Below are positions 16,033-28,762 of a DNA stretch of 64,000 nucleotides, piece after piece. Source of the stretch: Klebsiella phage vB_KaeM_KaOmega; the sequence record MN013077.1. The stretch is one strand, 5' to 3'. The translations under genes were made by a program, and so were the position numbers. Numbering within the stretch: the first letter of the stretch is position 1; each line of letters starts with the position of its first letter. The notes beneath the pieces were generated by a model, which worked only from the letters and a program-made list of their open reading frames with translations, did not search any database and was not told the origin of the DNA.

Positions 16033-16308
16033 CTCCAGAATAGCGGGCAGGTCCGGTGATTGTCTCCGGGTCAATTCTCCCCGCTATGTGTATAATATAA
16101 CCCAGGCCCGGCCCGGTGGCAAGCGTCTTTACAGTTCTTTACAAAACTATTTTAGGCGAACTACCGGCGATCCACCTTCCGACCTGGCCCCGGTGCCCGG
16201 TACGTTAGCCCCGCCTTTTCGCCGTGGGGTGGCGTCTCCTCTCCTGTATGTGTACATTATGCACCAGGCCAGCCGGGCCGTCAATACCAAAATCAAAATA
16301 AATTTTTC

Positions 16309-16337
16309 TTGACCCACCAGGCCAGCCGGGCCACAAT
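16309..16337 (+). promoter_or_regulatory. sigma70-like promoter TTGACC-N17-CACAAT with GC-rich spacer (GGCCAGCCGGGCC)
   Basis: Precedes SD AAAAGGAGA and ATG 16368; the spacer motif CACCAGGCCAGCCGGGCC also occurs at 16262. Confidence 0.45.
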
Positions 16338-16367
16338 GCAGGCACACCAACAAAAGGAGATCGACCC

Positions 16368-16700
16368 ATGCAACAGACGAAATATTTTATTGAAGGAACA
16401 GCCGCCGCCCACGCCGGGCAGATCCGCGCCTGCCGCTACAATAAAGAAGAGAACCGCCGGGAATGGTTCGCCGGGTTCGATAGTGTGGATCGTGGCTATG
16501 CCGTGTTTAAGATCCTCCCTGGTCCCGGCGCTGTTAAGCTGGCTGACCTGGACCCCGTTTATATTGGTGGCGTTAAACAATGCCAAGATCGCGCCGTTAC
16601 CCTGCAACAGGCAGACCGCGCCGGGCGCTATGTCATTTATGATATGGCAACGGGCAAGCCGTACCAGGAAAGCACAAAATTAAATTACAAAAATATTTAA
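16368..16700 (+). CDS. cassette ORF, hypothetical protein
   Basis: 110 aa; strong SD; first ORF of the plus-strand array. Confidence 0.55.
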   Translation: MQQTKYFIEGTAAAHAGQIRACRYNKEENRREWFAGFDSVDRGYAVFKILPGPGAVKLADLDPVYIGGVKQCQDRAVTLQQADRAGRYVIYDMATGKPYQESTKLNYKNI

Positions 16701-16708
16701 AATAATGC

Positions 16709-16737
16709 TTGACGGGGCCGACGATAGGCCCCATAAT
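16709..16737 (+). promoter_or_regulatory. hairpin-spacer sigma70 promoter (TTGACG-GGGGCC gacgat GGCCCC-ATAAT)
   Basis: -35 TTGACG and -10 CATAAT 17 nt apart; spacer folds as a 6-bp GC hairpin. Archetype of about 20 copies. Confidence 0.65.
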
Positions 16738-16789
16738 TAACCACATAGCGACGCACACCGCGCCGCACTAACAAAGAGAGACCGTCATC

Positions 16790-17227
16790 ATGTTACATTC
16801 AATCAATAAAGAGCAAAAACTGTACGTCCTGAAGTGTGGCAACGGCTTTACCTGCTATGGGTTCGAAGTGCTGGACACAAACGCCCGCAAGGTTAAACAG
16901 TGGTTAGAATCTGAAGGTGCAACAGTCGAGGATCTCCCATATCGCAAGGGCACAAAGAAGCATTATAAAGCCTGTCAAGATATGATCGCCGCTGGTTGTG
17001 CTTATCATGCCAGAACGGGCAAACGCTGCCTTGCTGGACTCACCAAACAATTAAAGGGCCTGGAGGGTCGCCGGGTAGAGGTTGTCACCATGTACGGCGA
17101 AAAACGCCGCTTTATTGTGGGCCGTTCTACTGGCTGGATGCCTGCCCACTTAGAGATCGCCCGCGTCAACAGTAGCGGCGGCATGAGTGCAGAGCAGGAA
17201 TATAAATCTGTAACTATCGTAAAATAA
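16790..17227 (+). CDS. cassette ORF, hypothetical protein
   Basis: 145 aa; conserved TIR AAAGAGAGACCGTCATCATG. Confidence 0.55.
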   Translation: MLHSINKEQKLYVLKCGNGFTCYGFEVLDTNARKVKQWLESEGATVEDLPYRKGTKKHYKACQDMIAAGCAYHARTGKRCLAGLTKQLKGLEGRRVEVVTMYGEKRRFIVGRSTGWMPAHLEIARVNSSGGMSAEQEYKSVTIVK

Positions 17228-17230
17228 ACG

Positions 17231-17259
17231 TTGACACCGGGGCCACCTAGCCCCATAAT
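17231..17259 (+). promoter_or_regulatory. hairpin-spacer sigma70 promoter
   Basis: TTGACA-CCGGGGCC acctag CCCC-ATAAT. Confidence 0.6.
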
Positions 17260-17309
17260 ACAAACAAGCCCGGCAAATGGTGCCCGGCAAAATCAGAGAG
17301 TAAAAGAAA

Positions 17310-17531
17310 ATGGCTAAAGTAACCTATAAAAAATCACGTGGCGTTTCCTCTGTTAACCTGGCGGCGGTTGTAACCCTGCCCGCATACCGTACCCGTGACG
17401 AGGCGCGCGCCGTTGCCAGTAAGATCCGCGCCGCTGGCGTGACCCCGACAACGCCAACCAAAACGGCGGACGGCTGGCGAGTTACCGCAAAGCATAACGG
17501 CGGCACACTTTCCCGCAACACTCACCGCTAA
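17310..17531 (+). CDS. cassette ORF, hypothetical protein
   Basis: 73 aa; Ala/Thr-rich. Confidence 0.5.
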   Translation: MAKVTYKKSRGVSSVNLAAVVTLPAYRTRDEARAVASKIRAAGVTPTTPTKTADGWRVTAKHNGGTLSRNTHR

Positions 17532-17540
17532 CCAATTGCA

Positions 17541-17560
17541 GGCCCCCGGCGGGGGCCTTT
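17541..17560 (+). terminator. GC hairpin terminator (weak U-tract)
   Basis: GGCCCCC-GGC-GGGGGCC followed by TTTC. Confidence 0.45.
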
Positions 17561-17577
17561 CGTGTGGAGTCAGTAAC

Positions 17578-17922
17578 ATGACCAAACAGATCTACCATGT
17601 ACCGATCACGCCGCTTTTCCGTTGTCATATCTTTTATGACTGTAATGATCTTGCGGGGCAATGGATCGGCGATACCGATCAACAATATGATTTCCCGGAA
17701 TGGGACGAACTAAACCGCCGTGTAAGCAACGCCGCACACAATGCCGATCCTGATAGCCTGGCGGACGTGGAACACTTCCCCGGCGGGGCCGCTTGTTTTC
17801 CTTATATTGAGATCACCGCGCCAACGTGGGCGCTATGTAAAGCGATGGGCGACGCCGTGATCCGTTGCATCCTGGACAATGGCGGGATCGTCGAACCAAA
17901 AGACAACGGAATAAATATTTAA
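17578..17922 (+). CDS. cassette ORF, hypothetical protein
   Basis: ATG 17578 after GGAG (track ORF starts with TTG at 17536); 114 aa. Confidence 0.5.
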   Translation: MTKQIYHVPITPLFRCHIFYDCNDLAGQWIGDTDQQYDFPEWDELNRRVSNAAHNADPDSLADVEHFPGGAACFPYIEITAPTWALCKAMGDAVIRCILDNGGIVEPKDNGINI

Positions 17923-17941
17923 ATTATTTTCGTTTTAGGGG

Positions 17942-17970
17942 TTGACGCCCGGCGGCGTTACCCTCATAAT
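17942..17970 (+). promoter_or_regulatory. hairpin-spacer sigma70 promoter
   Basis: TTGACG-CCCGGCGGCG ttaccct-CATAAT. Confidence 0.55.
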
Positions 17971-18022
17971 GTATCACATAGGGCGACGGAATAACCCGCC
18001 GCCAAAACCAAAAGGTAACAGT

Positions 18023-18262
18023 ATGCAAACCGTAATGATTAGCCACCCGGATCACGCTTCAGACTTCTACGCCCCGATTTACGCGCCGCTTGAATGGCAA
18101 CGCGCCGGACTGCAAAAAACCGCCACGGGCTACGGCACAAAGATCCCGACGTCCTACATGTTGGACTATCAAGGCAAGCGCCGCCGGATCTACGTTGACC
18201 AGTACAGCAACAGCGGCCACACTTACATAATGATCAAAGGCGAAAAAATTACGGTCTGCTAA
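18023..18262 (+). CDS. cassette ORF, hypothetical protein
   Basis: ATG 18023 after AAAAGGTAACAGT (track ORF 17942 runs through the promoter); 79 aa. Confidence 0.5.
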   Translation: MQTVMISHPDHASDFYAPIYAPLEWQRAGLQKTATGYGTKIPTSYMLDYQGKRRRIYVDQYSNSGHTYIMIKGEKITVC

Positions 18263-18271
18263 AAATAATTG

Positions 18272-18301
18272 TTGACCAGGGGCCGGGTTAGGCCCCATAA
18301 T
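18272..18301 (+). promoter_or_regulatory. hairpin-spacer sigma70 promoter
   Basis: TTGACC-AGGGGCC gggtta GGCCCC-ATAAT. Confidence 0.6.
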
Positions 18302-18333
18302 ACCAGACATACCAAACAAACGAGGCTTTAAAA

Positions 18334-18564
18334 ATGAATCTGACTACTATCGGCGCTAACCAAACTATGATCACCCTGGCAAATGGCGCACAGGTTTTCT
18401 TTTCCTACAATACCCCGGTTGCGGCATACCTGCCCGGCGAGGGCTACTTGGTGACCGCCACAAAGCACAGCGCCACCACCTCAAAGCATGTTAACGCTTG
18501 GGCTGGCAAAGGTTGCGAGACCCGCCCACAGGAATTTTTTGATAATCTGATTAAATCCGCTTGA
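18334..18564 (+). CDS. cassette ORF, hypothetical protein
   Basis: 76 aa. Confidence 0.5.
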   Translation: MNLTTIGANQTMITLANGAQVFFSYNTPVAAYLPGEGYLVTATKHSATTSKHVNAWAGKGCETRPQEFFDNLIKSA

Positions 18565-18590
18565 CGTTGGTTTATGCTGGGGTATATAAT
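18561..18590 (+). promoter_or_regulatory. sigma70 promoter TTGACG-N18-TATAAT
   Basis: TTGACGTTGGTTTATGCTGGGGTATATAAT. Confidence 0.55.
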
Positions 18591-18642
18591 CCCCGGCATA
18601 GGCAAGCGAAAGCAAACAACCAAACCGAAAGGATAGTAAACG

Positions 18643-19023
18643 ATGAACATTATCAACACTGTAAACGCTAACGAAATCAAAGAAATTTCCGTAACTGGTA
18701 AACGTTGGTTCCAACGTAGCGCCGGGAACACTTACCACAGTGTAAGCCTGGCGGCGCTGGTATCCGTAGAAGTGGCGGACCGTTTAGGCGCTAACCAATA
18801 CGGAAACAAGTCCGGCGACGTGTGGATCGACCTGGCTTATGTTGGTTTCGCTTATGGGTATGAGCGCGGATTTGAACAAACCGCATTAAGTGCAATGATC
18901 GAGGCGGTGAAGGATTCCCCGGCGGCGTGGCGTAAAATGGTTTACGCTTGCCAGGCGGCGGCGGATCTGGGGGTTGTTTACACTGATAACGTTTACGACG
19001 TAAGCCGCAAAAAAGATTTATAA
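18643..19023 (+). CDS. cassette ORF, hypothetical protein
   Basis: 126 aa; SD AAAGGATAG. Confidence 0.55.
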   Translation: MNIINTVNANEIKEISVTGKRWFQRSAGNTYHSVSLAALVSVEVADRLGANQYGNKSGDVWIDLAYVGFAYGYERGFEQTALSAMIEAVKDSPAAWRKMVYACQAAADLGVVYTDNVYDVSRKKDL

Positions 19024-19029
19024 TTGTGG

Positions 19030-19059
19030 TTGACACGGGGCCGGGTTAGGCCCCATAAT
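19030..19059 (+). promoter_or_regulatory. hairpin-spacer sigma70 promoter
   Basis: TTGACA-CGGGGCC gggtta GGCCCC-ATAAT. Confidence 0.6.
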
Positions 19060-19091
19060 ACCCGCACACCAACAGAAAAGAGATTCACACC

Positions 19092-19301
19092 ATGATCAAC
19101 GAACAGCAAGTAAACGACGTTAAACATGAGGCTTACCAGGTGGCGATCCGTAGCGGTTCCCGCGCCGCCTTTAATCTGGTTGTTGAGTTGTACCCAGAGC
19201 AGGCGCAAAATATCTTGATGCAGGTATCCGTTTTACTGGAGGCGACAAAGCACACCAAATTAAGCGCCGGGATCGACCGCCTCGCAAATAGTTTAAAATA
19301 G
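19092..19301 (+). CDS. cassette ORF, hypothetical protein
   Basis: 69 aa. Confidence 0.5.
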   Translation: MINEQQVNDVKHEAYQVAIRSGSRAAFNLVVELYPEQAQNILMQVSVLLEATKHTKLSAGIDRLANSLK

Positions 19302-19304
19302 TTG

Positions 19305-19333
19305 TTGACATCGGGGCCACCCGGCCCCATAAT
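19305..19333 (+). promoter_or_regulatory. hairpin-spacer sigma70 promoter
   Basis: TTGACA-TCGGGGCC accc GGCCCC-ATAAT. Confidence 0.6.
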
Positions 19334-19383
19334 CTGATACATAGCGACGCACAACGCGCCGCACAAAATAGAGAGACCGTAAA

Positions 19384-19749
19384 ATGACTACTTCCACCAA
19401 AAACACCGCCGCTACTGCCGCCGTTCGCGCTTACGTTGTATCTGTTATCGACTTTGAAGGCACCGACGCCGAAAAGCTGAAATTTTTCTTTGATACCCTG
19501 CAATCTGAATACGGGCACGAGGTTAGCCGCTTGGGTCCACAACGCGCCATCACGGAATATCTTCGCGGCCTGCCGTCGTCAATCAATCATGCTTTTATGA
19601 ATCATGAGATCCTTGATCTTTTGTCTGAATGGGGTTACATTCATTTCCACACCACAGCAGCCCAGGAAGAATGGGAGTTAGATCAGTATTGGACACGTTT
19701 GGCGGGTTCTCTGATTATTCAGGCACGTAAGCACGGGGTGATTGAATGA
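19384..19749 (+). CDS. cassette ORF, hypothetical protein
   Basis: 121 aa; TIR AGAGAGACCGTAAAATG. Confidence 0.55.
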   Translation: MTTSTKNTAATAAVRAYVVSVIDFEGTDAEKLKFFFDTLQSEYGHEVSRLGPQRAITEYLRGLPSSINHAFMNHEILDLLSEWGYIHFHTTAAQEEWELDQYWTRLAGSLIIQARKHGVIE

Positions 19750-20060
19750 TTACAGTTCTAACCTTGATCGGGTTAGCGGCGGCGGCGCTGTACTGCGTCG
19801 CCACTTACAAGGCGTCAGTTTGGCGGAAGGGTCAAAAAATGTACGGCTATTTTGAATATGAGTACAAAGGGGAGAAGGGATCAAGCCGGGACTATGGCGC
19901 GATGTTAGAGATCGATATGGTTGGCGCTATGAATTATCGCCAGGAGTTAGGCGCGGCGATCACTTATGAAGTTTATGATCCCTCAGAAGAGAAGATCGGG
20001 GAGATAATTGATCAACGTTACTATATGGAACAGCAACAAAACAAACGCCGGAGAAAATGA
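19746..20060 (+). CDS. hypothetical protein with N-terminal TM helix
   Basis: 104 aa; ATGA overlap; MITVLTLIGLAAAALYCVATY is hydrophobic. Confidence 0.5.
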   Translation: MITVLTLIGLAAAALYCVATYKASVWRKGQKMYGYFEYEYKGEKGSSRDYGAMLEIDMVGAMNYRQELGAAITYEVYDPSEEKIGEIIDQRYYMEQQQNKRRRK

Positions 20061-20197
20061 GAATGATTCACACTAATATTAACCGCGATAAACAACCGCG
20101 CCGCGCCCGTCTCTCATATGCTGAAGCAGGCGAGCGCCTGCAACGTGAGAAGGCCAACAAACAACAGCGCCGTAAAACGCGCTATAACTGGGAGTAA
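20057..20197 (+). CDS. putative 46-aa basic peptide
   Basis: ATGA overlap; Arg/Lys-rich (QPRRARLSYAEAGERLQREKANKQQRRKTRYNWE); precedes a terminator. Confidence 0.3.
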   Translation: MRMIHTNINRDKQPRRARLSYAEAGERLQREKANKQQRRKTRYNWE

Positions 20198-20243
20198 CCG
20201 CCCCCGGCATGGAAACACCAGGCCAAACCGTTTAAACCGCACA

Positions 20244-20269
20244 GGGGGCCGCTTAGGCCCCTTATTTTT
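20244..20269 (+). terminator. rho-independent terminator
   Basis: GGGGCC-gctta-GGCCCC followed by TTATTTTTG. Confidence 0.65.
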
Positions 20270-20286
20270 GATCTACGGGGTACACA

Positions 20287-20514
20287 ATGCAAAACCTTTA
20301 CAGCATGACCGAATTTATCCGATTGTTAGCAGGTCGCCCGATGGGGTTTACCTGCCTTTACCTGGTAACCGACGGCAAAGGCTATCGTATAACGTCCAAA
20401 TCATTAGCCGCCATTGCAGCGCGGGAAGGGGTGAAGATCTCCACCTCCCAGGCGCTGATTGTGGACCCGGCGACCGTGGCGACGATTGAGGCGATCCGGG
20501 TTACCGTAAAATAA
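20287..20514 (+). CDS. hypothetical protein
   Basis: 75 aa; no cassette promoter directly upstream. Confidence 0.4.
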   Translation: MQNLYSMTEFIRLLAGRPMGFTCLYLVTDGKGYRITSKSLAAIAAREGVKISTSQALIVDPATVATIEAIRVTVK

Positions 20515-20538
20515 TTTAAAATATTTTCATCCTGGGGC

Positions 20539-20567
20539 TTGACGTCCGGCCCCGGTTCCCCCATAAT
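20539..20567 (+). promoter_or_regulatory. hairpin-spacer sigma70 promoter
   Basis: TTGACG-TCCGGCCCCGGTTCCCC-CATAAT. Confidence 0.55.
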
Positions 20568-20617
20568 CTAACCCATAGCGACGCACACCGCGCCGCACAA
20601 ACAAAAGAGAGACCGTT

Positions 20618-21034
20618 ATGACTTCCCCAATTTTCCGTATCAAATCAGGCTTATCGGCTTACGCATTATCTTGCGGTTACTTCCAGCGTATCGAGTCAGA
20701 GATCACCGGGGAAGATATCCGGGTTGACCTTTGGCATGAGTCGGGCCACTTCCACGCCCGCGCCCACAATTTTACAACCTCCACTCGGATCGAATGGGTA
20801 ACAGAAAGTAACCTTGACGACGCCCGCACACAATGGGCCGCGCTTGTCAAACAAATTTTTGGCGACGTGATCCGCACCATTAAAAAGGATAAGCGCTACA
20901 CCGTAAACCGTGAGTTTGCCGGAGAGTCATCACCCGCTTATGTGACCCGCTTTTGTGGCGAATGGGTATCAAACAGCGATACCGCGCCCGGCGCATGGGT
21001 AAAAGCCGCCGAACACAACGCCGAAAGAATTTAA
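20618..21034 (+). CDS. cassette ORF, hypothetical protein
   Basis: 138 aa; TIR AAAAGAGAGACCGTTATG. Confidence 0.55.
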   Translation: MTSPIFRIKSGLSAYALSCGYFQRIESEITGEDIRVDLWHESGHFHARAHNFTTSTRIEWVTESNLDDARTQWAALVKQIFGDVIRTIKKDKRYTVNREFAGESSPAYVTRFCGEWVSNSDTAPGAWVKAAEHNAERI

Positions 21035-21043
21035 AAATAATTG

Positions 21044-21072
21044 TTGACGGGGCCGACGATAGGCCCCATAAT
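21044..21072 (+). promoter_or_regulatory. hairpin-spacer sigma70 promoter (identical core to 16709)
   Basis: TTGACG-GGGCC gacgat AGGCCCC-ATAAT. Confidence 0.65.
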
Positions 21073-21103
21073 ACCCACAGATAAGCAAACCGGAGTTAGA
21101 CCA

Positions 21104-21256
21104 ATGAAACATTATCTTGTAAACATTCCTGGCGTGGCTGGCCCGCTTAAAGTTTTCGGCTATGATGAACAGGACGCAAGAAAGCGCCTACGTGATCGGG
21201 AAGGTTTCGGATCACGCCTCCCACGGGGCACAAAATTTTATTTGCAAAACGCTTGA
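21104..21256 (+). CDS. cassette ORF, 50-aa hypothetical protein
   Basis: ATG 21104 (MKHYLVNIPG...) after GGAG; track ORF 21041 starts inside the promoter. Confidence 0.45.
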   Translation: MKHYLVNIPGVAGPLKVFGYDEQDARKRLRDREGFGSRLPRGTKFYLQNA

Positions 21257-21282
21257 CGTGTGGTTATGCCGTCCCTTACAAT
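21253..21282 (+). promoter_or_regulatory. sigma70 promoter TTGACG-N18-TACAAT with hairpin GCCGTC..GACGGC
   Basis: TTGACGTGTGGTTATGCCGTCCCTTACAATGACGGCAT. Confidence 0.5.
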
Positions 21283-21334
21283 GACGGCATAGACAAACGA
21301 AAGCAAACCAGACAACCAAACGAGGGTTACAATT

Positions 21335-21586
21335 ATGTTTGAAGTATTCGCCGGAATGTGTTTTTATGCTGCCGCCGCTTTAAAACAGTGTGATGATTAC
21401 ACCGTTGAAGCATACGATGATCAATTAACGTGTGAGATCGTCGCCAATGGCTACCGTCAGGACCCGCGCTGGATTAACCCGGCTTGCATACCGGGGCCGG
21501 AAGTGGAAGCAATGCCGGAGGGTGATCCGTGGCTTGAACCTGTACCGCCTGCCGATCATTTCAATGTTAACCCGGCACAAAAATAA
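21335..21586 (+). CDS. cassette ORF, hypothetical protein
   Basis: 83 aa. Confidence 0.5.
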   Translation: MFEVFAGMCFYAAAALKQCDDYTVEAYDDQLTCEIVANGYRQDPRWINPACIPGPEVEAMPEGDPWLEPVPPADHFNVNPAQK

Positions 21587-21589
21587 TTG

Positions 21590-21617
21590 TTGACGTGTGG
21601 TTATAGGTCTGTATAAT
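21590..21617 (+). promoter_or_regulatory. sigma70 promoter TTGACG-N16-TATAAT
   Basis: TTGACGTGTGGTTATAGGTCTGTATAAT. Confidence 0.55.
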
Positions 21618-21660
21618 GCGGACCTATAGACAAACGAAACGCCACCAAACGAGGCACAAA

Positions 21661-22020
21661 ATGAAATCATACGCTGAAGCTATCGCCACCCGTCCCGATC
21701 TCCTGGTAAAGGGTGATCTATTCCTTACGCTGGAGACTTTCGATTTTTCCCGTGATATCAACGGCAATACGATCAACAAATATCGCGCCGCGCTTGTCTC
21801 AGGCGACGAACAAAGCGTTTTAAACTGGTACGCCGCCGCCAATGAGCTGGAGATCCTCAAATCACCTTATCGCCGTGAACAGTCCCATAATGACGGCGCA
21901 AGCGCCGCCCTTTATCGCTTGGGCTTGCTGGGGTACGAACTGGAATACATTACCACACAATACGGCCCCGGCAAGCGCCGCGCCTATCGAATTTTCTACC
22001 GTGTAAAGAATGCAAAATAA
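21661..22020 (+). CDS. cassette ORF, hypothetical protein
   Basis: ATG 21661 after AACGAGGCACAAA (track ORF 21616 over-extended); 119 aa. Confidence 0.5.
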   Translation: MKSYAEAIATRPDLLVKGDLFLTLETFDFSRDINGNTINKYRAALVSGDEQSVLNWYAAANELEILKSPYRREQSHNDGASAALYRLGLLGYELEYITTQYGPGKRRAYRIFYRVKNAK

Positions 22021-22023
22021 GTA

Positions 22024-22052
22024 TTGACCAGGGGCCGGAAAGGCCCCATAAT
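22024..22052 (+). promoter_or_regulatory. hairpin-spacer sigma70 promoter
   Basis: TTGACC-AGGGGCC ggaa AGGCCCC-ATAAT. Confidence 0.6.
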
Positions 22053-22088
22053 ACCAGACATACCCAAACAGGCATAAGAGGCCACAAA

Positions 22089-22268
22089 ATGAAATCATCT
22101 TTACTTTTCGCCCTGGTTGACATCGTGATCGGCAACGGTTGCGGGCAACATACTTTCATAGCTAACCGCCCCTATCCGCTGAAGTCATTGCAGGCCGACG
22201 CCCGCCTAACCGCCGGGCAGATCCGCCGCTACTTTCGTGAACCACACCCGGCAAAAAGTGCAAAATAA
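22089..22268 (+). CDS. cassette ORF, 59-aa hypothetical protein
   Basis: ATG 22089 after TAAGAGGCCACAAA; below the track cutoff. Confidence 0.4.
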   Translation: MKSSLLFALVDIVIGNGCGQHTFIANRPYPLKSLQADARLTAGQIRRYFREPHPAKSAK

Positions 22269-22271
22269 TTG

Positions 22272-22301: not shown

Positions 22302-22330
22302 GACCTCACACAAACAAACGAGGCTATAAC

Positions 22331-22627: not shown

Positions 22628-22779
22628 ATCCGCATAAACTTTTAATCACCAGCTACACCAGCAAGGCGGATCGCCGTGAAACTTTGGACCGCTTAACCCG
22701 CTATTATCAGGAGGCCGGGCACAATAAGACAACCGCCCGCGCCCTGGCTAAAAAACGTTTACGTTTTGGTAAAAATTAG
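22624..22779 (+). CDS. putative 51-aa basic protein
   Basis: ATGA overlap; MNPHKLLITSYTSKADRRETLDRLTRYY... Confidence 0.3.
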   Translation: MNPHKLLITSYTSKADRRETLDRLTRYYQEAGHNKTTARALAKKRLRFGKN

Positions 22780-22780
22780 C

Positions 22781-22809
22781 TTGACGCCCGGCCCGAAAGG
22801 GCCGATAAT
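22781..22809 (+). promoter_or_regulatory. hairpin-spacer sigma70 promoter (GATAAT -10)
   Basis: TTGACG-CCCGGCCC gaaa GGGCC-GATAAT. Confidence 0.6.
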
Positions 22810-22861
22810 CTCTCACATAGGGCGGGGAATGGTTCCCCGCATTATCTAAGAGGTTATGAAC

Positions 22862-23014
22862 ATGTTTACTTTGATGACTTGGGAACACGAATCAAGCGCC
22901 CCGATCCGCCGGACCTTTGAAAACTTATGCGCTGCTTATCGCCTGGCGCAAGGCGGTTACTATAAAGCCCAAATCATCGACGAAAACAATATTGTAATGT
23001 ACGAATTTAAATGA
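22862..23014 (+). CDS. cassette ORF, 50-aa hypothetical protein
   Basis: ATG 22862 with TAAGAGG SD 8 nt upstream; the leader holds the CATAGGGCGGGGAATGGTTCCCCGC hairpin. Confidence 0.4.
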   Translation: MFTLMTWEHESSAPIRRTFENLCAAYRLAQGGYYKAQIIDENNIVMYEFK

Positions 23015-23043
23015 TTGACATCCGGCCCGAAAGGGCCGATAAT
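23015..23043 (+). promoter_or_regulatory. hairpin-spacer sigma70 promoter (GATAAT -10)
   Basis: TTGACA-TCCGGCCC gaaa GGGCC-GATAAT. Confidence 0.6.
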
Positions 23044-23076
23044 GACCCCCACACCAAACAAAAGAGAGACCGTAAA

Positions 23077-23283
23077 ATGATTACTATGATTCTGCAAAAG
23101 TCCCGCCTGATTGATGTTACCGTCACCCTGTCCGCTTGCGGTGAATCATCCCGCCGGGCCGATCATTACCAGGTTACCGCTGTAAGCGACAACGGCGCGA
23201 TCCTGCTGTCTGAGGCGACCCCCGCGCTACATGAGGCATTTTTGACTTATTCGAAGTGGAAAGGGCCGGAAGAAATAAAATAA
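23077..23283 (+). CDS. cassette ORF, hypothetical protein
   Basis: ATG 23077 after AAAAGAGAGACCGTAAA; 68 aa. Confidence 0.5.
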   Translation: MITMILQKSRLIDVTVTLSACGESSRRADHYQVTAVSDNGAILLSEATPALHEAFLTYSKWKGPEEIK

Positions 23284-23290
23284 AAAGTAG

Positions 23291-23319
23291 TTGACGGCGG
23301 GGCCGATAGGCCCCATAAT
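23291..23319 (+). promoter_or_regulatory. hairpin-spacer sigma70 promoter
   Basis: TTGACG-GCGGGGCC gat AGGCCCC-ATAAT. Confidence 0.6.
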
Positions 23320-23353
23320 ACCACCACACCAAACGAATAAAGAGAATCACAAA

Positions 23354-23608
23354 ATGTTAAAATTCATCAAATCACTTTTCACCCGTACCGCCCCGGCTTG
23401 CAAGTTGCCACCCCTGGAGGCGAAAGGTGTGATCGCTCGCAAAGTCTCAGAATTGTTTATCATTTCATTGGTTCACAATGGCGGCGACTGTTACGAAATC
23501 ATCGAAATGGGCCGCTACACTAAAACAGGATCAAGCCGTGTCCGCTACGGTGAACACCGCGCCCGGAATCATTTTGATTCTGTATGCTGTATGGTCGGTG
23601 CAAAATAA
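23354..23608 (+). CDS. cassette ORF, hypothetical protein
   Basis: ATG 23354 (MLKFIKSLF...); 84 aa. Confidence 0.5.
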   Translation: MLKFIKSLFTRTAPACKLPPLEAKGVIARKVSELFIISLVHNGGDCYEIIEMGRYTKTGSSRVRYGEHRARNHFDSVCCMVGAK

Positions 23609-23611
23609 ACC

Positions 23612-23640
23612 TTGACGGGGCCAACGTTAGGCCCCATAAT
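23612..23640 (+). promoter_or_regulatory. hairpin-spacer sigma70 promoter
   Basis: TTGACG-GGGCC aacgtt AGGCCCC-ATAAT. Confidence 0.6.
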
Positions 23641-23690
23641 GTATCACACAGGGCGACACAACGCCGCCCACAAACAAAAGGCAGACCGTT

Positions 23691-24053
23691 ATGATCTTCA
23701 ATATCACCGAACTGAAAAAGAAAATGTCAGAGATGCTCTTCAATATTAGTGAATACGGGCACCCGTCCTACACTATCTTTGAGGCTGTTTTGTCAAAGTG
23801 CCAAAAGTTCGAATTAGTGATCGAGGTTGTACCGGGTCGCCTCCTGAAGTTGGGATCTGGCAAGTGGGGTTATAAACTTGATGCCTACGTCCAACAGTTA
23901 GCCGCCGGGGCCGATCCTATGGCAGATGATTATTGCGATGATGCCGACACTATCGCAAGCGTGGACGGTGAATATTGCCGGACAAAGGCGGCGCTTTTTG
24001 AAGCGATCAGCGAAGTTATCAACGAAGCAAAAGAAAACGTAATAACACGATAA
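23691..24053 (+). CDS. cassette ORF, hypothetical acidic protein
   Basis: 120 aa; TIR AAAAGGCAGACCGTTATG. Confidence 0.55.
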   Translation: MIFNITELKKKMSEMLFNISEYGHPSYTIFEAVLSKCQKFELVIEVVPGRLLKLGSGKWGYKLDAYVQQLAAGADPMADDYCDDADTIASVDGEYCRTKAALFEAISEVINEAKENVITR

Positions 24054-24067
24054 GCTAAAAAGAATTG

Positions 24068-24097
24068 TTGACGCCGGGAAGCGTTACGGGTTATACT
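24068..24097 (+). promoter_or_regulatory. sigma70 promoter TTGACG-N18-TATACT
   Basis: TTGACGCCGGGAAGCGTTACGGGTTATACT. Confidence 0.45.
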
Positions 24098-24145
24098 CTT
24101 TTCATCGGGTCACAACAGACCACAACAAACAAAGAGAGAAACAAA

Positions 24146-24223
24146 ATGAGCGTAATCTTCCTAGTATCTGTTTTCGTAGCTATTGCATCTTCTACCGCAA
24201 TTTGTATCAAACTGGGATACTAA
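24146..24223 (+). CDS. putative 25-aa hydrophobic peptide
   Basis: Own promoter and AAAGAGAGAAACAAA SD; MSVIFLVSVFVAIASSTAICIKLGY. Confidence 0.3.
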   Translation: MSVIFLVSVFVAIASSTAICIKLGY

Positions 24224-24227
24224 TTAA

Positions 24228-24620
24228 ATGACTACTTTCAACGTTTTACACTTAAACGCTTTTATCGCGGGTTACATTGAGGCAATGTTTTTTGCAGAGT
24301 CCGCCACCGATAGCGACGGCGAAGAGATCGAAAGTTTAGCCGGGTATGAGTTAAGCGCTGAAGCCCTGGACGCTGCCCGCATGGATTGTGCCCGCTTTAT
24401 GGACGTTGCGCCTCTGTTACTCAAAGGGGCAATGCTGGCAGGGGTTGACTATGACCACACCCAGGCGGGCCGGGATCTATGGTTTAGCCGTCAAGGGCAC
24501 GGCGTAGGATTCTGGGATCGCGGACTTGGGGCGATCGGTGATAAACTCCACGACGTGGCGAAGACTTTCGGATCAAAAAATCTGTTTATCAATGATGCCG
24601 GATTTATTGAGGTAGAATAA
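24228..24620 (+). CDS. hypothetical protein
   Basis: 130 aa. Confidence 0.5.
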   Translation: MTTFNVLHLNAFIAGYIEAMFFAESATDSDGEEIESLAGYELSAEALDAARMDCARFMDVAPLLLKGAMLAGVDYDHTQAGRDLWFSRQGHGVGFWDRGLGAIGDKLHDVAKTFGSKNLFINDAGFIEVE

Positions 24621-25081
24621 TGAACCTTACAGATCTGAAGTATTACGACGAATTGACCCCAGCGGCGCAAGCTGAAGCCCGGCGCAACGTTGCCGCTAGT
24701 GTGCAGACTCACCACGGGCGGGAAATCGGAAAGGCGTTTTTTAAATTCCAGCGGGACCCAAACAAGGCGATCAATGACCCGCTGCACATCCGCCGGATCA
24801 TCAATGGCGGCGAAGCGTGGCGCAAGATCCGCCAGGAGGGCGACGCCTATCTAATCCGCTTTATCCGGTCCAATAAAGTGATCTTTACTGATTGCGGGGC
24901 GTATGTAGCGTATGTGGACGCCTTCACAATGTTTATTGATGGGTTGGAATACATACCCACAGCCGAACAGCAAAAGACTCTTAGAACGCCTTACATCGAC
25001 GTTAACGGGCGGGGGCCTGCGTTTCATGATTGGCTATACCGTATGCACCACAAAATAAAGTTTTTCATGATCCGGGGTTGA
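24620..25081 (+). CDS. hypothetical protein
   Basis: 153 aa; TAATG junction. Confidence 0.5.
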   Translation: MNLTDLKYYDELTPAAQAEARRNVAASVQTHHGREIGKAFFKFQRDPNKAINDPLHIRRIINGGEAWRKIRQEGDAYLIRFIRSNKVIFTDCGAYVAYVDAFTMFIDGLEYIPTAEQQKTLRTPYIDVNGRGPAFHDWLYRMHHKIKFFMIRG

Positions 25082-25106
25082 CACCCGGCGGAATAGGGCC
25101 GATAAT
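25078..25106 (+). promoter_or_regulatory. hairpin-spacer sigma70 promoter (GATAAT -10)
   Basis: TTGACA-CCCGGCGGAATAGGGCC-GATAAT, followed by leader CATAGGGCGGGGAATGGTCCCCG. Confidence 0.55.
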
Positions 25107-25159
25107 GTCTCTCATAGGGCGGGGAATGGTCCCCGGCCCAATGAACTGGAGTCAGTACA

Positions 25160-25411
25160 ATGGAAATCAAACACGTAATTTCTGCAAACGTCGCCGTTTT
25201 AGGTTCTGTAAGTGAAACCCGTGTGAGTCTGGCGAAATGGTGCGCCGCTCAAACTTTCGGGAGTTACGGCGAAAAGGTAACAGAGGTTAAGCGCTTGCTT
25301 TCCTTTGGCAACGTGGGCCGCAAGTTGTTAACAGAGGATATCGCCCGCCGGGTTGAGATCCATTATTCACTTGCTCAAATCATCGTAAAAGAGATCGAAA
25401 GCGCAATTTAA
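25160..25411 (+). CDS. cassette ORF, hypothetical protein
   Basis: 83 aa; SD GGAG. Confidence 0.5.
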   Translation: MEIKHVISANVAVLGSVSETRVSLAKWCAAQTFGSYGEKVTEVKRLLSFGNVGRKLLTEDIARRVEIHYSLAQIIVKEIESAI

Positions 25412-25449
25412 CCCGGCCCGGCCCCGAAAGGGGCCAAAAGGAAAATAAA

Positions 25450-25629
25450 ATGACTTATTTCAGAAACTTAGAAAACGGGCATTATTACACCATATCCGCC
25501 GGGCGGGTTCGTTGGTGGCTGGATCATTCTGCCGTGTGGGTCCGTAGTGAACATCTAAAGCCGTGTGACCTTGCCCACTATCCGTATATTGGAACCACCA
25601 CCGGACCAGGGGCCGAAAATGGGCGCTAA
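25450..25629 (+). CDS. putative 59-aa protein
   Basis: AAAAGGAAAATAAA SD; follows the GGCCCCGAAAGGGGCC hairpin. Confidence 0.35.
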   Translation: MTYFRNLENGHYYTISAGRVRWWLDHSAVWVRSEHLKPCDLAHYPYIGTTTGPGAENGR

Positions 25630-25843
25630 TACCCGCAACCGCTACGGCATAACGCGCCGTTTCGGGGTCTGCTATATGCTGGCAGATGATCCACAATACA
25701 GGGCATTGCTGGAGGCTTACCAGGTCACCAAACTGGACGCCCAAAAGGGCCGGGCCGAACATGCCGCCCACGTAGCGAACATCAAAGCGTTACACGAATT
25801 TTTAGCCGTCGCTGAAAAGCGCCACGACATCCGCCACCGTTGA
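25619..25843 (+). CDS. hypothetical protein
   Basis: ATG 25619 (MGANTRNRYG...); track ORF 25565 over-extended. Confidence 0.45.
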   Translation: MGANTRNRYGITRRFGVCYMLADDPQYRALLEAYQVTKLDAQKGRAEHAAHVANIKALHEFLAVAEKRHDIRHR

Positions 25844-25854
25844 GAGTGCAAACC

Positions 25855-26049
25855 ATGATCACAGAATCCGAGATCCGCCAAACGTTAGCCGCCTTGCGTT
25901 ACCTCCACGCCTTGCGCCGGGCAAGTGATCCGACTTATGCCGGGTCATGCCTGGCTAACGATGCCGAAAACGGGATCGCCACACTGAAAGAATTAAACGA
26001 CCGCATGAGCGACAGCGACCGATCCGACTTCATAGGGGGCGAAATATGA
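25855..26049 (+). CDS. hypothetical protein
   Basis: ATG 25855 after GAGAG; 64 aa. Confidence 0.45.
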   Translation: MITESEIRQTLAALRYLHALRRASDPTYAGSCLANDAENGIATLKELNDRMSDSDRSDFIGGEI

Positions 26050-26246
26050 TCGACTTATCCGGCGTGAAGCCTGGCGATCTGGTCTGGGCCTTTGACTATC
26101 CGACCGATCCACCGTATGACGTTTGCAACGCTTGCAAACTGGAGTATTTGAACACCGGGAAAAATGAGTACCAGTTACGCCGCCCGGATAACGGCGTGAT
26201 CGTTTACTTTCGCTACATCGCACCAATTGAAGGGGCCAAACCATGA
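26046..26246 (+). CDS. hypothetical protein
   Basis: 66 aa; ATGA overlap. Confidence 0.45.
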   Translation: MIDLSGVKPGDLVWAFDYPTDPPYDVCNACKLEYLNTGKNEYQLRRPDNGVIVYFRYIAPIEGAKP

Positions 26247-26557
26247 TCGCCATTACGCCAACCGTTTTAGATTGGTATCGCCAACAGATCGCGCCGCCGC
26301 TGGCTATCTTCAAACAGGCAGAAAGCAAACAGCGCCGGATCTCCATTCATGAGATCATCACCCTTAACGCCGGGGCGGTCCCGTTCAATCCTGGGGCGGG
26401 TCGCAACATGGGCAACACGTTAGCGCTTTTGAGTTTACGCCGGAAACGGTCCGCCCTTACCTTGGATTCACTCCGCATGATGGGAGATCCGCACCGGGTA
26501 ACAGGTCGCCGGATCGCCAGGGCCTGGGAACGGGCAAACGGTCGAAAGGTTGTATAA
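26243..26557 (+). CDS. hypothetical protein
   Basis: 104 aa; ATGA overlap; followed by a terminator. Confidence 0.5.
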   Translation: MIAITPTVLDWYRQQIAPPLAIFKQAESKQRRISIHEIITLNAGAVPFNPGAGRNMGNTLALLSLRRKRSALTLDSLRMMGDPHRVTGRRIARAWERANGRKVV

Positions 26558-26572
26558 AATAACAGTGTTTAC

Positions 26573-26606
26573 AGGGGTTGAATTGTTCGCCCCTTTTTGT
26601 TATCCT
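26573..26606 (+). terminator. rho-independent terminator (imperfect stem, strong U-tract)
   Basis: GGGGTTGAA-ttg-TTCGCCCC followed by TTTTTGTTATCCTTTTTT. Confidence 0.55.
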
Positions 26607-26699
26607 TTTTTCATGCGATGGCACCTGATGCAGGGGGAGACAAACACCGGACCTGCCCGCTATTCAGGAAGGCGGACCGGACCTGGGTCTCTCCGGATA

Positions 26700-26722
26700 G
26701 ATGAGAATGGTTATCATTCCCA
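26700..26722. promoter_or_regulatory. operator-like site GATGAGAATGGTTATCATTCCC
   Basis: Contains the ATGAGAAT half-site plus ATCATTCCC; related to the sites at 15958, 16016 and 29276. Confidence 0.35.
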
Positions 26723-26975
26723 ATCAAATCAAATACATACTTTCAAACCGTTGTCAAATTTATTTCGTACTCCTGTATAAATGTACATGGTTCTAAAACG
26801 TCCTGAATCGCGTTTTAAGCCGTTTTCCCCTTACCCGGTATCCTACATCATAAAAATATAGATCTCTCGAAATCGGACTTTCGCACTTTTTGCCCTTGCA
26901 AACGTAAAAATTTTATGTTAGACCTGAAGGGCTGAAAGCCGGGTTTACGTTGACAAAACTTTACAATTCTCCCTA

Positions 26976-27003
26976 TTGCATCGATCCGCCATTGTGCTAT
27001 TAT
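26976..27003 (+). promoter_or_regulatory. sigma70-like promoter TTGCAT-N16-TATTAT
   Basis: Upstream of leader CACGTAGGGCGGC...AGAGGAGACAGTAAAAATG (start 27057). Confidence 0.4.
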
Positions 27004-27056
27004 TTATCACGTAGGGCGGCAATGACGCGACGGCCCGCAGAGAGGAGACAGTAAAA

Positions 27057-27428
27057 ATGAACCTGACCAACTTCAACCGCTACTACATCCGCGACGAACA
27101 GGCAAACGCTTTTGGGTACGATCGTTCGTTCGAAATGCAACAGCACGTAGGCGGCGCAAAGTTACACGTTGAAACTGTTACCTTTGAAAACTATTTTATG
27201 GCGACCTTTGACAATGGTTTACAGATCTCCATTGAGTACAAAGGCGGCGTGATGACTCTCGCCACTGAGGATAAATTCCGCAAAAAAGATCTTTTGAATC
27301 ATCCAGGTTTTGCCAGCAACAAAGAATTATTGATTAAAATTTATATCCGCTGGGTAGTGGGCCGCATCGCAACAGAAGAGCAGATCGCCGCCCTGGTGGA
27401 TCTGGCTCTGAATCTGGATTTAAATTAA
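27057..27428 (+). CDS. cassette ORF, hypothetical protein
   Basis: 123 aa; SD AGAGGAGA. Confidence 0.55.
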   Translation: MNLTNFNRYYIRDEQANAFGYDRSFEMQQHVGGAKLHVETVTFENYFMATFDNGLQISIEYKGGVMTLATEDKFRKKDLLNHPGFASNKELLIKIYIRWVVGRIATEEQIAALVDLALNLDLN

Positions 27429-27431
27429 TAG

Positions 27432-27460
27432 TTGACAAGGGGCCGGAAAGGCCCCATAAT
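27432..27460 (+). promoter_or_regulatory. hairpin-spacer sigma70 promoter
   Basis: TTGACA-AGGGGCC ggaa AGGCCCC-ATAAT (identical to the core at 22024). Confidence 0.6.
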
Positions 27461-27505
27461 ACCCACTCAAGCAACAAACCACTAAGAACACTGGAGACCG
27501 TAAAA

Positions 27506-27820
27506 ATGACCAAATCTAAATTTTTCGAAATGCTGGATCGCTACCTGTCAAGCCATAACGAGTGGGCCAAACTTGGCAACGGTTACGACTCATACAAGGC
27601 CGAACAGTTAAAACCTTATGTTTTCCATGAGGACCCGGCGAACCTGGAGAAATGGAAAGCTAAAGATCCGTCCTATCCTTGGACCGCTCACGCTTCAGGT
27701 TTTACCCTGGCTGATTGTTGGCATGTTGAGGTAATGCAACATAAAACCGCTGAAGCGGCAGAAAAGCAAAACAAAATTTTCACCCGCTGGATCGCAGACT
27801 ATCAAAAGGCCCGCGCTTAA
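27506..27820 (+). CDS. cassette ORF, hypothetical protein
   Basis: 104 aa; TIR CTGGAGACCGTAAAAATG. Confidence 0.55.
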   Translation: MTKSKFFEMLDRYLSSHNEWAKLGNGYDSYKAEQLKPYVFHEDPANLEKWKAKDPSYPWTAHASGFTLADCWHVEVMQHKTAEAAEKQNKIFTRWIADYQKARA

Positions 27821-28065
27821 TGTCCCGGCTTTTTAAAATCAATCTTCCATTGTGGGCCGCTTTAGCGGTCCTCATTGCCTTTTTTGGCGATACGGTCAAC
27901 AATTGGATTTTGTCCGCTGTACTTGGACCGGATCAACTGGTCACAACATTTTTAAACGCTTTCGGCGCTACACTGGCAACGGCCCGCCTTGCCTATCGTG
28001 GCAAATCAATAAACCGTTATGATCTGGCGCTATCACTGCCCGCCCTGGTTACCTGCCTAAACTGA
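27820..28065 (+). CDS. small membrane protein
   Basis: 81 aa; two hydrophobic helices (LPLWAALAVLIAFFG; LVTTFLNAFGATLATARLAY). Confidence 0.5.
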   Translation: MSRLFKINLPLWAALAVLIAFFGDTVNNWILSAVLGPDQLVTTFLNAFGATLATARLAYRGKSINRYDLALSLPALVTCLN

Positions 28066-28069
28066 AGAG

Positions 28070-28094
28070 GCCCGCCACCCCGGCGGGCTTTTTG
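28070..28094 (+). terminator. rho-independent terminator
   Basis: GCCCGCC-acccc-GGCGGGC followed by TTTTTG. Confidence 0.7.
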
Positions 28095-28123
28095 TTGCAT
28101 CCAGATCCGTGACCTGTTATAAT
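28095..28123 (+). promoter_or_regulatory. sigma70 promoter TTGCAT-N17-TATAAT
   Basis: TTGCATCCAGATCCGTGACCTGTTATAAT; TIR CTGGAGACCGTAAAACATG. Confidence 0.5.
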
Positions 28124-28169
28124 ACTTACTCACCCGGCAACCGGGCCAAACAACTGGAGACCGTAAAAC

Positions 28170-28370
28170 ATGACAACCGCCAACCGCCTGATCGATGTTC
28201 TGAATGATGCAAAGGCAAACCGTTTAGCCGTGGCAATCAAAGAAGAGGCAAACGGGCTGATCCTGGCAAGTGTTACCGATGGCTGTTACACTGAATCATT
28301 CCATGCTGATACACTGGAGTATCTCGCCCACAGATTAGAAATGATCGTTGACGATTGGCGGCTATTGTGA
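28170..28370 (+). CDS. cassette ORF, hypothetical protein
   Basis: 66 aa; last ORF of the plus-strand array. Confidence 0.5.
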   Translation: MTTANRLIDVLNDAKANRLAVAIKEEANGLILASVTDGCYTESFHADTLEYLAHRLEMIVDDWRLL

Positions 28371-28386
28371 TCCGACCAAACCAAAC

Positions 28387-28412
28387 AGGCCCGGCATAGT
28401 CCGGGCTTTTTA
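28387..28412 (+). terminator. rho-independent terminator
   Basis: GCCCGG-catagt-CCGGGC followed by TTTTT. Confidence 0.7.
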
Positions 28413-28762
28413 GTGCCTGCAATCCGGCCCGGTATTGGTCCGACTCCCCCAGCCTATAAGCCCTTATCATTTAACATTGTGGAAATCAACATCTAATTTT
28501 ATTCATAAAAACATGCATAATTGAATACAGGAGGCGCTAACCCACTAGCCAGGGTTGAGAGTAGCGGGCCGCATAGGGCCTTACAGCGCGTTTTAGCCCC
28601 TATTGACTTCTATCTGCAAACGTGTATCAGGCCACAACTGACTAAATCACCTTTTCTTTACATAACTTGACACTATTTATTCATTTATCTGCATAATGCG
28701 AGAATGATTATCATTTACAATCAATAACTTAACTTTTTATTGACTTCTGACAAAACACGGTT

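Follow-up and report, generated by a model that had tools for sequence, protein, structure and literature searches.

Promoters with nested stem-loops in the early region of Klebsiella phage vB_KaeM_KaOmega: probable PeSL-type cassettes in a Certrevirus

Promoter-early stem-loop (PeSL) cassettes were defined in the T4-like phages RB49/phi1, and also in PST/T4 and nt-1/KVP40 (Arbiol et al. 2010, PMC2839356; Comeau et al. 2014, PMC4122927). The stem-loop of a PeSL, often a G-run followed by a C-run, is situated between the -35 and -10 elements or overlaps either of them, and the cassette ends with a Shine-Dalgarno sequence (SD) and an ATG (PMC2839356, PMC4122927). PeSLs cluster before ORFans in hyperplastic regions and mediate indels that leave a chimeric motif at the junction, and their promoter activity, terminator activity and mini-circles were demonstrated experimentally for RB49/phi1 (PMC2839356, PMC4122927); the stem-loop of RB49 PeSL211/210 cut the expression of downstream lacZ as strongly as rrnB T1 (PMC2839356). 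In the searched literature, the term PeSL is applied to T4-like phages only. Here, we describe an array of small open reading frames (ORFs) and stem-loop-bearing promoters in a 64,000-nt stretch of DNA (the window) from Klebsiella phage vB_KaeM_KaOmega (MN013077.1). It is likely that this array consists of PeSL-type composite cassettes, that is, early sigma70 promoters in which a nested stem attenuates or insulates read-through RNA and whose cores serve as recombination sites.

The best matches over the whole window, the array as well as its flanks (1–15000 and 36000–60000), are members of Certrevirus (Vequintavirinae, the rV5-like subfamily), which are syntenic with it and share 91–94% identity. 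The nearest complete genomes are those of Enterobacter phages vB_ExiM_F1M1E to F5M1E, followed by PBES 02, CR3, CR8, CR9, phiTE, CB7 and others, and the G+C content of the window is ~50%. The T5-like (Demerecviridae) origin that had been assumed for this DNA in the original prediction was rejected, since similarity and synteny go with Certrevirus instead. For this genus, Buttimer et al. (2020, PMC7344957) reported a sigma70-like early promoter, AAAA(N3-4)TGTTGAC(N17)TATAAT, with 13–21 sites per genome in the early region of CB7, CR3, CR8 and CR9, and noted that certreviruses have no RNA polymerase gene of their own. That paper leaves N17 unspecified and uses neither of the words stem-loop and hairpin, and the papers on rV5 and phiTE give no account of hairpin promoters. 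The original prediction had held that the architecture was not known to have been described for such a genome; the sigma70-like array is in fact already published for the genus, while the hairpins are not mentioned there. PMC7344957 contains no description of an embedded structure with its covariation and three geometries, nor of indels bounded by cassettes.

The motif TTGAC-N(1-12)-GGCCCC-N-TAAT occurs in seven exact copies in the window, all of them within the array (16709 to 27432) and on the + strand, and in none of 100 shuffles (expectation, 0.00). A looser pattern (TTGACN, 16–18 nt, nAnAAT) yielded 20 + strand sites between 16309 and 27432, while only 5 + strand and 6 - strand sites were found over the remaining 52 kb. 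A consensus scanner called 39 promoter-like sites at 15.5–29.5 kb, compared with 16.9 ± 3.7 expected. Together with a promoter with a TATACT -10 element at 24068 and two TTGCAT-type promoters at 26976 and 28095, the 20 looser-pattern sites make up a set of 23 + strand promoters (16309–28123; named below by P and their position) serving 36 small + strand ORFs of 25–153 aa (mean, 89 aa). Using hairpin thresholds of our own choice, a GC-rich stem-loop was identified in 20 of the 23 promoters. In 13 of them (P16709, P17231, P18272, P19030, P19305, P21044, P22024, P22272, P22781, P23015, P23291, P23612 and P27432), a hairpin of 5–6 GC pairs lies within the spacer; in three (P18561, P21253 and P21590), a stem of 7–10 bp, whose 3' arm terminates in CATAG, encloses the -10 element; and in four (P17942, P20539, P24068 and P25078), the stem encloses or overlaps the -35 element. 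The features of the array are as follows.

16309–28370, + strand: array of 36 small ORFs, 23 promoters and 5 promoter-less intergenic stem-loops, an early "hyperplastic" region (from the gene/promoter table and ORF list)
16309–16337, + strand: P16309, the array's first promoter, TTGACC-17-CACAAT, no GC stem; its orthologs in all Certrevirus relatives are also stemless
16709–16737, + strand: promoter, spacer hairpin GGGGCC-gacgata-GGCCCC (16714–16732); minimum free energy (MFE) of the RNA -14.4 kcal/mol, z -3.1
17231–17259, + strand: promoter, spacer hairpin GGGGC-caccta-GCCCC (17239–17254)
17540–17558, + strand: promoter-less intergenic GC stem-loop followed by TTTCGTG (terminator/attenuator-like, weaker)
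17942–17970, + strand: promoter, -35-overlapping stem TGACGCC-cggc-GGCGTTA (17943–17960)
18272–18301, + strand: promoter, spacer hairpin GGGGCC-gggtta-GGCCCC (18279–18296)
18561–18600, + strand: promoter, 10-bp stem round the -10, TATGCTGGGG-tatataat-CCCCGGCATA (18573–18600; one T.G pair), 3' arm ending in CATAG; MFE -18.5 kcal/mol, z -4.5
19030–19059, + strand: promoter, spacer hairpin GGGGCC-gggtta-GGCCCC (19037–19054)
19305–19333, + strand: promoter, spacer hairpin GGGGCC-accc-GGCCCC (19313–19328); a homology breakpoint at its +4 is common to all nine relatives
20243–20263, + strand: stem-loop resembling a canonical terminator, with ATTTTTG after it, in a gap that has no promoter
20532–20567, + strand: P20539 (TTGACG at 20539), stem enclosing the -35, CTGGGGC-ttgacgtccg-GCCCCGG (20532–20555)
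21044–21072, + strand: promoter, spacer hairpin GGGGCC-gacgata-GGCCCC (21049–21067), identical to 16709
21253–21291, + strand: promoter, 9-bp stem enclosing the -10, TATGCCGTC-ccttacaat-GACGGCATA (21265–21291)
21590–21628, + strand: promoter, stem enclosing the -10, TATAGGTC(TG)-...-(CG)GACCTATA (21602–21628); MFE -15.3 kcal/mol, z -4.3
22024–22052, + strand: promoter, spacer hairpin GGGGCC-ggaaa-GGCCCC (22031–22047)
22272–22301, + strand: promoter, spacer hairpin GCCGGG-caccgt-CCCGGC (22277–22294); left crossover partner of the phiTE 1.77-kb deletion
22781–22809, + strand: promoter, spacer hairpin CGGCCC-gaaa-GGGCCG (22789–22804), upstream of the DUF7170 ORF
23015–23043, + strand: promoter, spacer hairpin CGGCCC-gaaa-GGGCCG (23023–23038); with P22781 it brackets a 50-aa ORF missing in CB7 and PcCB7V
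23291–23319, + strand: promoter, spacer hairpin GGGGCC-gata-GGCCCC (23299–23314)
23612–23640, + strand: promoter, spacer hairpin GGGGCC-aacgtta-GGCCCC (23617–23635)
24068–24097, + strand: promoter TTGACG-18-TATACT, weak -35-overlapping stem TGACGC-cgggaa-GCGTTA (24069–24086); in the phiTE and CB7 deletions, the right-hand crossover partner
25072–25106, + strand: P25078 (TTGACA at 25078), stem enclosing the -35, CCGGG-gttgaca-CCCGG (25072–25088)
25420–25435, + strand: promoter-less intergenic hairpin GGCCCC-gaaa-GGGGCC, no T-run
26976–27003, + strand: promoter TTGCAT-16-TATTAT, no GC stem, after 418 nt of non-coding DNA; upstream of the Gp30.7-family ORF 27057–27428, which it is predicted to drive
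27432–27460, + strand: promoter, spacer hairpin GGGGCC-ggaaa-GGCCCC (27439–27455)
28065–28093, + strand: canonical terminator (GC stem + TTTTT) preceding P28095
28095–28123, + strand: promoter TTGCAT-17-TATAAT, no GC stem, directly after the canonical terminator
28387–28408, + strand: canonical terminator at the end of the array

The number of ORFs in this table agrees with the ~36 of the original prediction, which had also described a recurrent sigma70 element with the hairpin in its spacer. The latter is real and occurs in 13 promoters, but the stem is also found around the -10 (three promoters) or around or overlapping the -35 (four promoters). Among the three pairs of copies said to be identical, only 16709/21044 is so; the other two show differences of 1 nt (22024/27432) and 2 nt (22781/23015). 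The cassettes are ~80–100 bp in size and similarly built. The gap that separates the upstream stop codon from the -35 is -4 to 24 nt and falls within an A/T-rich tract, with AAAATAATTG as its typical sequence and mostly A/T at positions -10 to -4 ahead of the -35; the spacer-class stems finish at or beside -12; the start region after the -10 is conserved (often CACATAG), and a 29–53-nt A/C-rich leader with an SD connects the -10 to the ATG.

The stems are kept by selection as structures, as is shown by their covariation. Across 170 promoter sites from the window and nine relatives (ten phages), many of which are orthologous rather than independent copies, 69% contain a perfect stem of at least 6 bp, as opposed to 4% in composition-preserving shuffles of the spacer and start region. 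At least 12 distinct complementary spacer stems were found, e.g., GGGGCC/GGCCCC, CGGCCC/GGGCCG, GCCGGG(A)/(T)CCCGGC, GGGGCG/CGCCCC and GGCCCC/GGGGCC, with the GGGGCC type accounting for 49 of the 94 spacer stems, and the -10-enclosing stems have at least 14 different sequences. It is this persistence of complementarity between differing stem sequences that indicates selection on structure. In the -10-enclosing class, 97.6% of the outer six pairs are paired, and double changes occur at three pairs (8 cells), which was matched by 0 of 500 shuffles. G-C to C-G swaps were observed at 3 pairs in a fixed-geometry subset of the spacer class, which had been preselected for pairing, so that only its swaps are informative. 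The base at -12, where it closes the stem, always complements the 5' stem base (54 G:C, 10 C:G), and the orthologous intergenic site of P21044 has four different stem-loop alleles in eight phages, all of them paired. The predicted RNA stability of the hairpin-bearing promoters ranges from -10 to -18.5 kcal/mol (mean z, -2.6 over 20 promoters), and the arm-to-arm spacing from 3 to 12 nt.

The presence of a stem is related to what lies upstream of the promoter. Among the 23 promoters, the 20 directly adjoined by an upstream + strand gene (gap, -4 to 24 nt) carry without exception a GC stem of 5 bp or more, while it is absent in all three that are not, namely P16309, P26976 and P28095 (Fisher exact, 1/1771 for 20 vs. 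3, with few negatives and a threshold set after inspection of the data). An ORF at 16016–16312 (98 aa), annotated as a coding sequence in F1M1E, was considered as the upstream gene of P16309 and rejected: it has in-frame stops in PBES 02, phiTE, CB7, CR3, CR9 and SSBI34, and an internal deletion in a seventh relative, PcCB7V. Judging from these alignments it is probably not a gene and, as it is not conserved as coding, P16309 was counted as non-abutting. GC stem-loops are also present in promoter-less gaps. The three positions of the stem relative to the -35 and -10 suggest that it is not tied to one RNA polymerase contact, and this variability, taken together with the absence of stems at non-abutting promoters, argues that the stem acts on transcripts arriving from upstream and not on polymerase binding.

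Comparison with the relatives demonstrated that cassettes recombine with one another, as shown by the junctions. In CB7 and PcCB7V, a single cassette, similar to P22781 on its left flank and to P23015 on its right, replaces P22781, the 50-aa ORF and P23015; in POP15, a single cassette is found in lieu of P16709, a 145-aa ORF and P17231; and in phiTE, a single cassette replaces everything from P22272 through P24068 (1.77 kb, six genes). In each of these chimeric cassettes, the left flank corresponds to one window cassette and the right flank to another located 0.2–1.8 kb downstream. A cassette present between one and the same gene pair in PBES 02 and CR3 is absent here and in F1M1E. BLAST alignments against nine relatives were chained, and of the 58 unique homology breakpoints extracted from them, 30 fell in the cassette zone (-30 to +90 of a promoter), which occupies 21% of the region (p = 2e-7). 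Gene gain and loss bounded by cassettes had been anticipated in the original prediction, to which relatives with the same ORF set and no rearrangement at cassette boundaries would have been contrary; what the relatives have at these junctions is chimeric single cassettes.

In order, each cassette consists of an upstream stop codon set in an A-rich UP-like tract, a -35 (TTGACN) and a -10 (nATAAT) combined with the stem, a CATAG start, a leader with an SD, and the ATG. Host RNA polymerase with sigma70 would fire the promoters right after infection, a step that we infer from the sequence and from the published description of the genus; having its own promoter, each small gene or gene pair would form a separate transcription unit. 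The stem-loop would then form in RNA reading through from the upstream unit, where, as suggested by its placement and by analogy with RB49, its most likely role is that of a non-canonical attenuator or insulator, with protection of the upstream 3' end as a probable further one. Nesting of the stem in the next promoter would keep the intergenic spacers short. Finally, as the junctions in the relatives show, the repeated cassette cores provide dispersed homology, recombination between which deletes or inserts the intervening genes and leaves one chimeric cassette that would still be functional, thereby shuffling the accessory gene set.

Several findings weigh against parts of this interpretation. 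The stems lack a U-tract: the next 8 nt hold 2–3 U in the spacer class (e.g., AUAAUACC) and 0 U in the -10-enclosing class (e.g., GACAAACG), and a terminator scan calls none of the promoter stems. Canonical intrinsic terminators were therefore rejected as an explanation of these stems, and the efficiency of termination may be low. Within the array, T-run terminators are found in promoter-less gaps only, namely at 20243, 28065 and 28387 and, in a weaker form, at 17540; the annotated phiTE "terminator" features do not coincide with promoter stems. In imperfect stems, G.T exceeds A.C mismatches by 5:1, but the six usable cases are too few for the bias expected at the RNA level. The searched literature yields no transcript 5' or 3' ends for any phage of Vequintavirinae. 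The enrichment of breakpoints is confounded by the cassettes being the only intergenic DNA available, and between 24.2 and 27.4 kb there are indels at gene junctions that lack a promoter as well, indicating that cassettes help turnover but are not required for it.

Part of the same evidence would be accounted for if the stems acted post-transcriptionally only, in mRNA processing or stability, by protecting 3' ends or guiding RNase E to the adjacent AU-rich UP and -10 sequences, with the polymerase not being stopped. Stable as RNA, not followed by a U-tract and flanked on both sides by AU-rich single-stranded sequence, the stems suit such a role, and their positional flexibility and absence at non-abutting promoters fit it as well as attenuation. 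On the other hand, the RB49 stem-loop of the same design reduced the output of a downstream reporter to the same degree as rrnB T1 (PMC2839356), which points to read-through, although that assay cannot separate termination from decay. On balance, a purely post-transcriptional role seems rather unlikely.

Hairpins recognised at a fixed position by a phage-encoded polymerase are typical of N4 virion RNA polymerase promoters, and GNRA-type loops closed by C-G are unusually stable in DNA mini-hairpins. By analogy, supercoiling might extrude the KaOmega palindromes as hairpins or cruciforms, altering the -35/-10 spacing or exposing the -10 as a single strand, and so turn the promoters into topology-sensitive early switches; the stems are indeed short and GC-rich, always lie inside the promoter footprint when a promoter is concerned, and in several cases carry GAAA/GNRA-type loops closed by C-G. 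Extrusion at no fewer than three positions relative to the -35 and -10 would, however, affect polymerase binding in opposite ways; similar hairpins stand in promoter-less gaps, stems are missing at just those promoters that no transcription from upstream enters, G.T (a mismatch in DNA) is the more frequent in the few imperfect stems (5:1, 6 cases), and certreviruses encode no RNA polymerase (PMC7344957), all of which make this explanation very unlikely. Only slightly less doubtful is a broader proposal in which the stem-loops, beyond attenuating, constitute a structural code, to be read either in the DNA itself or by a factor specific for the structure: a supercoil-extruded off-switch in the spacer class, pre-melting where the -10 is in the loop, or the target of a phage factor that times shut-off or catalyses recombination. 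If this were true, the cassettes would be an active device for targeted gene shuffling and timing common to unrelated large myoviruses. An inverted repeat over a promoter is also the classic layout of an operator, through which a dimeric DNA-binding protein of phage or host origin might silence early promoters. Such a sequence-specific dimer would need conserved half-sites and fixed spacing, but the half-sites differ between copies while complementarity is kept, the arm spacing varies from 3 to 12 nt and the position in the promoter is variable, so that operators appear highly improbable. The identity or near-identity of some copies and the dominance of the GGGGCC type (49/94 spacer stems) could suggest a functionless passenger copied with one promoter cassette that spread by duplication, and yet the many different stems are all complementary, compensatory changes are found within one orthologous site, and the base at -12 is forced off the consensus T to preserve the closing pair; a passenger origin is the least credible of all. 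Extrusion, operator and passenger readings are thus disfavoured by variable geometry and covariation, on which grounds the last two were rejected, and attenuation or insulation of read-through RNA by PeSL-type cassettes is retained as the likely interpretation.

Pfam families were assigned to only 2 of the 36 ORFs, the other 34 having none, so the original prediction that the ORFs have no recognizable homologs largely holds; the same small hypothetical genes are annotated in the relatives. The 50-aa ORF 22862–23014, between P22781 and P23015, belongs to DUF7170, and 444 phage records contain homologs of it, with T1-like siphoviruses, Krischvirus (RB49-like) myoviruses and Aeromonas phages among them; by these sequence matches, it is a widely travelled small early gene. 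ORF 27057–27428 encodes a putative member of the T4 Gp30.7 family (PF06919; E = 1.8e-43), which is common to T4-like phages and is here found inside the array. In addition, a 25-aa strongly hydrophobic micro-ORF (MSVIFLVSVFVAIASSTAICIKLGY) at 24146–24223 has its own promoter, P24068. Leaders starting with CA(C/T)ATAGGGCG... (17970–18020, 22810–22860, 23641–23690 and 25107–25150) form families with a stem-loop of their own right at what is predicted to be the mRNA 5' end. One of these leaders shares 87% identity over 52 nt with a leader in Phapecoctavirus phages phAPEC8_ev052 and anhysbys; the anhysbys promoter of this leader has no GC hairpin in its spacer.

The non-coding regions around the array contain further repeats. 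An 18-bp direct repeat, CACCAGGCCAGCCGGGCC, at 16262–16279 and 16315–16332 occupies the spacer in a minus-strand promoter (16284 to 16256) as well as in P16309, so the same sequence is present in opposite orientation in two divergent promoters. A 15–17-bp palindrome, ATGAGAATCATTCTCAT, which resembles the 7-1-7 core of a Fur box, forms clusters at 15922–16032 and 29149–29293 (29279–29293 reads GATAATGATAATCAT), with single copies at 20057, 26701 and 28698, amounting to 25 strand-hits vs. 1.3 expected. The clusters lie in non-coding regions on either side of the array, beside divergent promoters, and are kept at equivalent positions in all Certrevirus relatives, Serratia phage ChuuTotoro and Phapecoctavirus anhysbys; they could mean that the outermost early promoters are under iron/Fur control or are the targets of a phage repressor. 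Dense, iteron-like short direct repeats (GATTTCAGAT...; GGGGTCTCGAT, four times) occupy non-coding positions 15380–15900 and may mark an origin or a regulatory region. Non-coding positions 28740–28920 contain TTACGTTCCCACGG(A)TCAAGGGA twice together with the inverted repeat CCAATAGAAAACAGGT/ACCTGTTTTCTATTGG; this region has no Rfam match and may be a structured RNA. Over the whole window, Rfam 15 gave 0 matches above the gathering score, and no tRNAs were found.

If the interpretation as PeSL-type cassettes is correct, the idea that a single short repeat can unite promoter, insulator and recombination site extends to unrelated large myoviruses, the Vequintavirinae, with hints in Stephanstirmvirinae, and suggests a general means by which dozens of host-takeover or anti-defence genes may be packed and quickly reshuffled. 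It would also supply an annotation rule for early transcription units and likely gene-exchange points in phages that are therapeutic candidates. The stems themselves are a natural series of compensatory variants at three positions, and provide material for testing hairpins inside sigma70 promoters.

As regards the distribution of the element, a scan of IMG/VR with the GGGGCC-type motif recovered only about 8 contigs, mostly Certrevirus-like and 142–153 kb in size, and the -10-enclosing pattern was found in 3 contigs, numbers too small to add to the statistics; the latter class is also present in a Vequintavirus, two Serratia phages and Phapecoctavirus-type phages. A promoter of this geometry (TTGACT-16-TATAAT, with the 7-bp stem GGCCCAT-atata-ATGGGCC around the -10) was observed outside the array as well, at 6528–6560. 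Compared with known systems, the promoter stems of KaOmega are similar to intrinsic terminators in being GC stem-loops placed just past a stop codon on the transcribed strand, but have no T-run. As in the hairpin promoters of N4, a small GC-rich hairpin lies within an early promoter, whereas here the promoters are sigma70-type, there is no phage polymerase gene and the position varies. Lambdoid morons are likewise lone accessory genes with their own promoter and terminator, but lack conserved flanking repeats serving as recombination sites (PMC2839356). Genus, early region and the element itself are the same in the Certrevirus promoter of Buttimer et al. (PMC7344957), to whose consensus the window sites conform.

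The closest correspondence is with PeSLs, and the PeSL-like architecture named in the original prediction was borne out: the elements have a UP-like A-tract, near-consensus -35/-10, a GC stem-loop in or overlapping the promoter, and a leader, SD and ATG. The identical scan, applied to the hyperplastic region of RB49, returned the same geometries, e.g., TTGACA-GGGGATC-ggt-GATCCCC-TATAAT and GGGGATAT-agcata-ATATCCCC around the -10, and the stem-loop of RB49 PeSL211/210 (TTGACAGGGGATCACGTATCCCCTATACT) likewise has no T-run. The two sets differ in that KaOmega belongs to Vequintavirinae (about 50% GC) and the defining PeSL phages to Straboviridae, T4-like residence being where PeSLs were found and not a mechanistic criterion; in stem sequence (GGGGCC, CGGCCC and GCCGGG types vs. 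GGGGATC); and in that the activities of RB49/phi1 were demonstrated by experiment, whereas the activity of the present cassettes is predicted from sequence. They have in common the AT-rich upstream tract, the near-consensus sigma70 promoter, the GC stem-loop at the same three positions and the SD and ATG at the 3' end, as well as their location ahead of small ORFans within a hyperplastic region, the stop codon of the upstream gene at the 5' end and the indel crossovers inside the cassette. In front of the DUF7170 ORFan, such a cassette is found in KaOmega and also in JSE, a relative of RB49, where the cassette is a bona fide PeSL.

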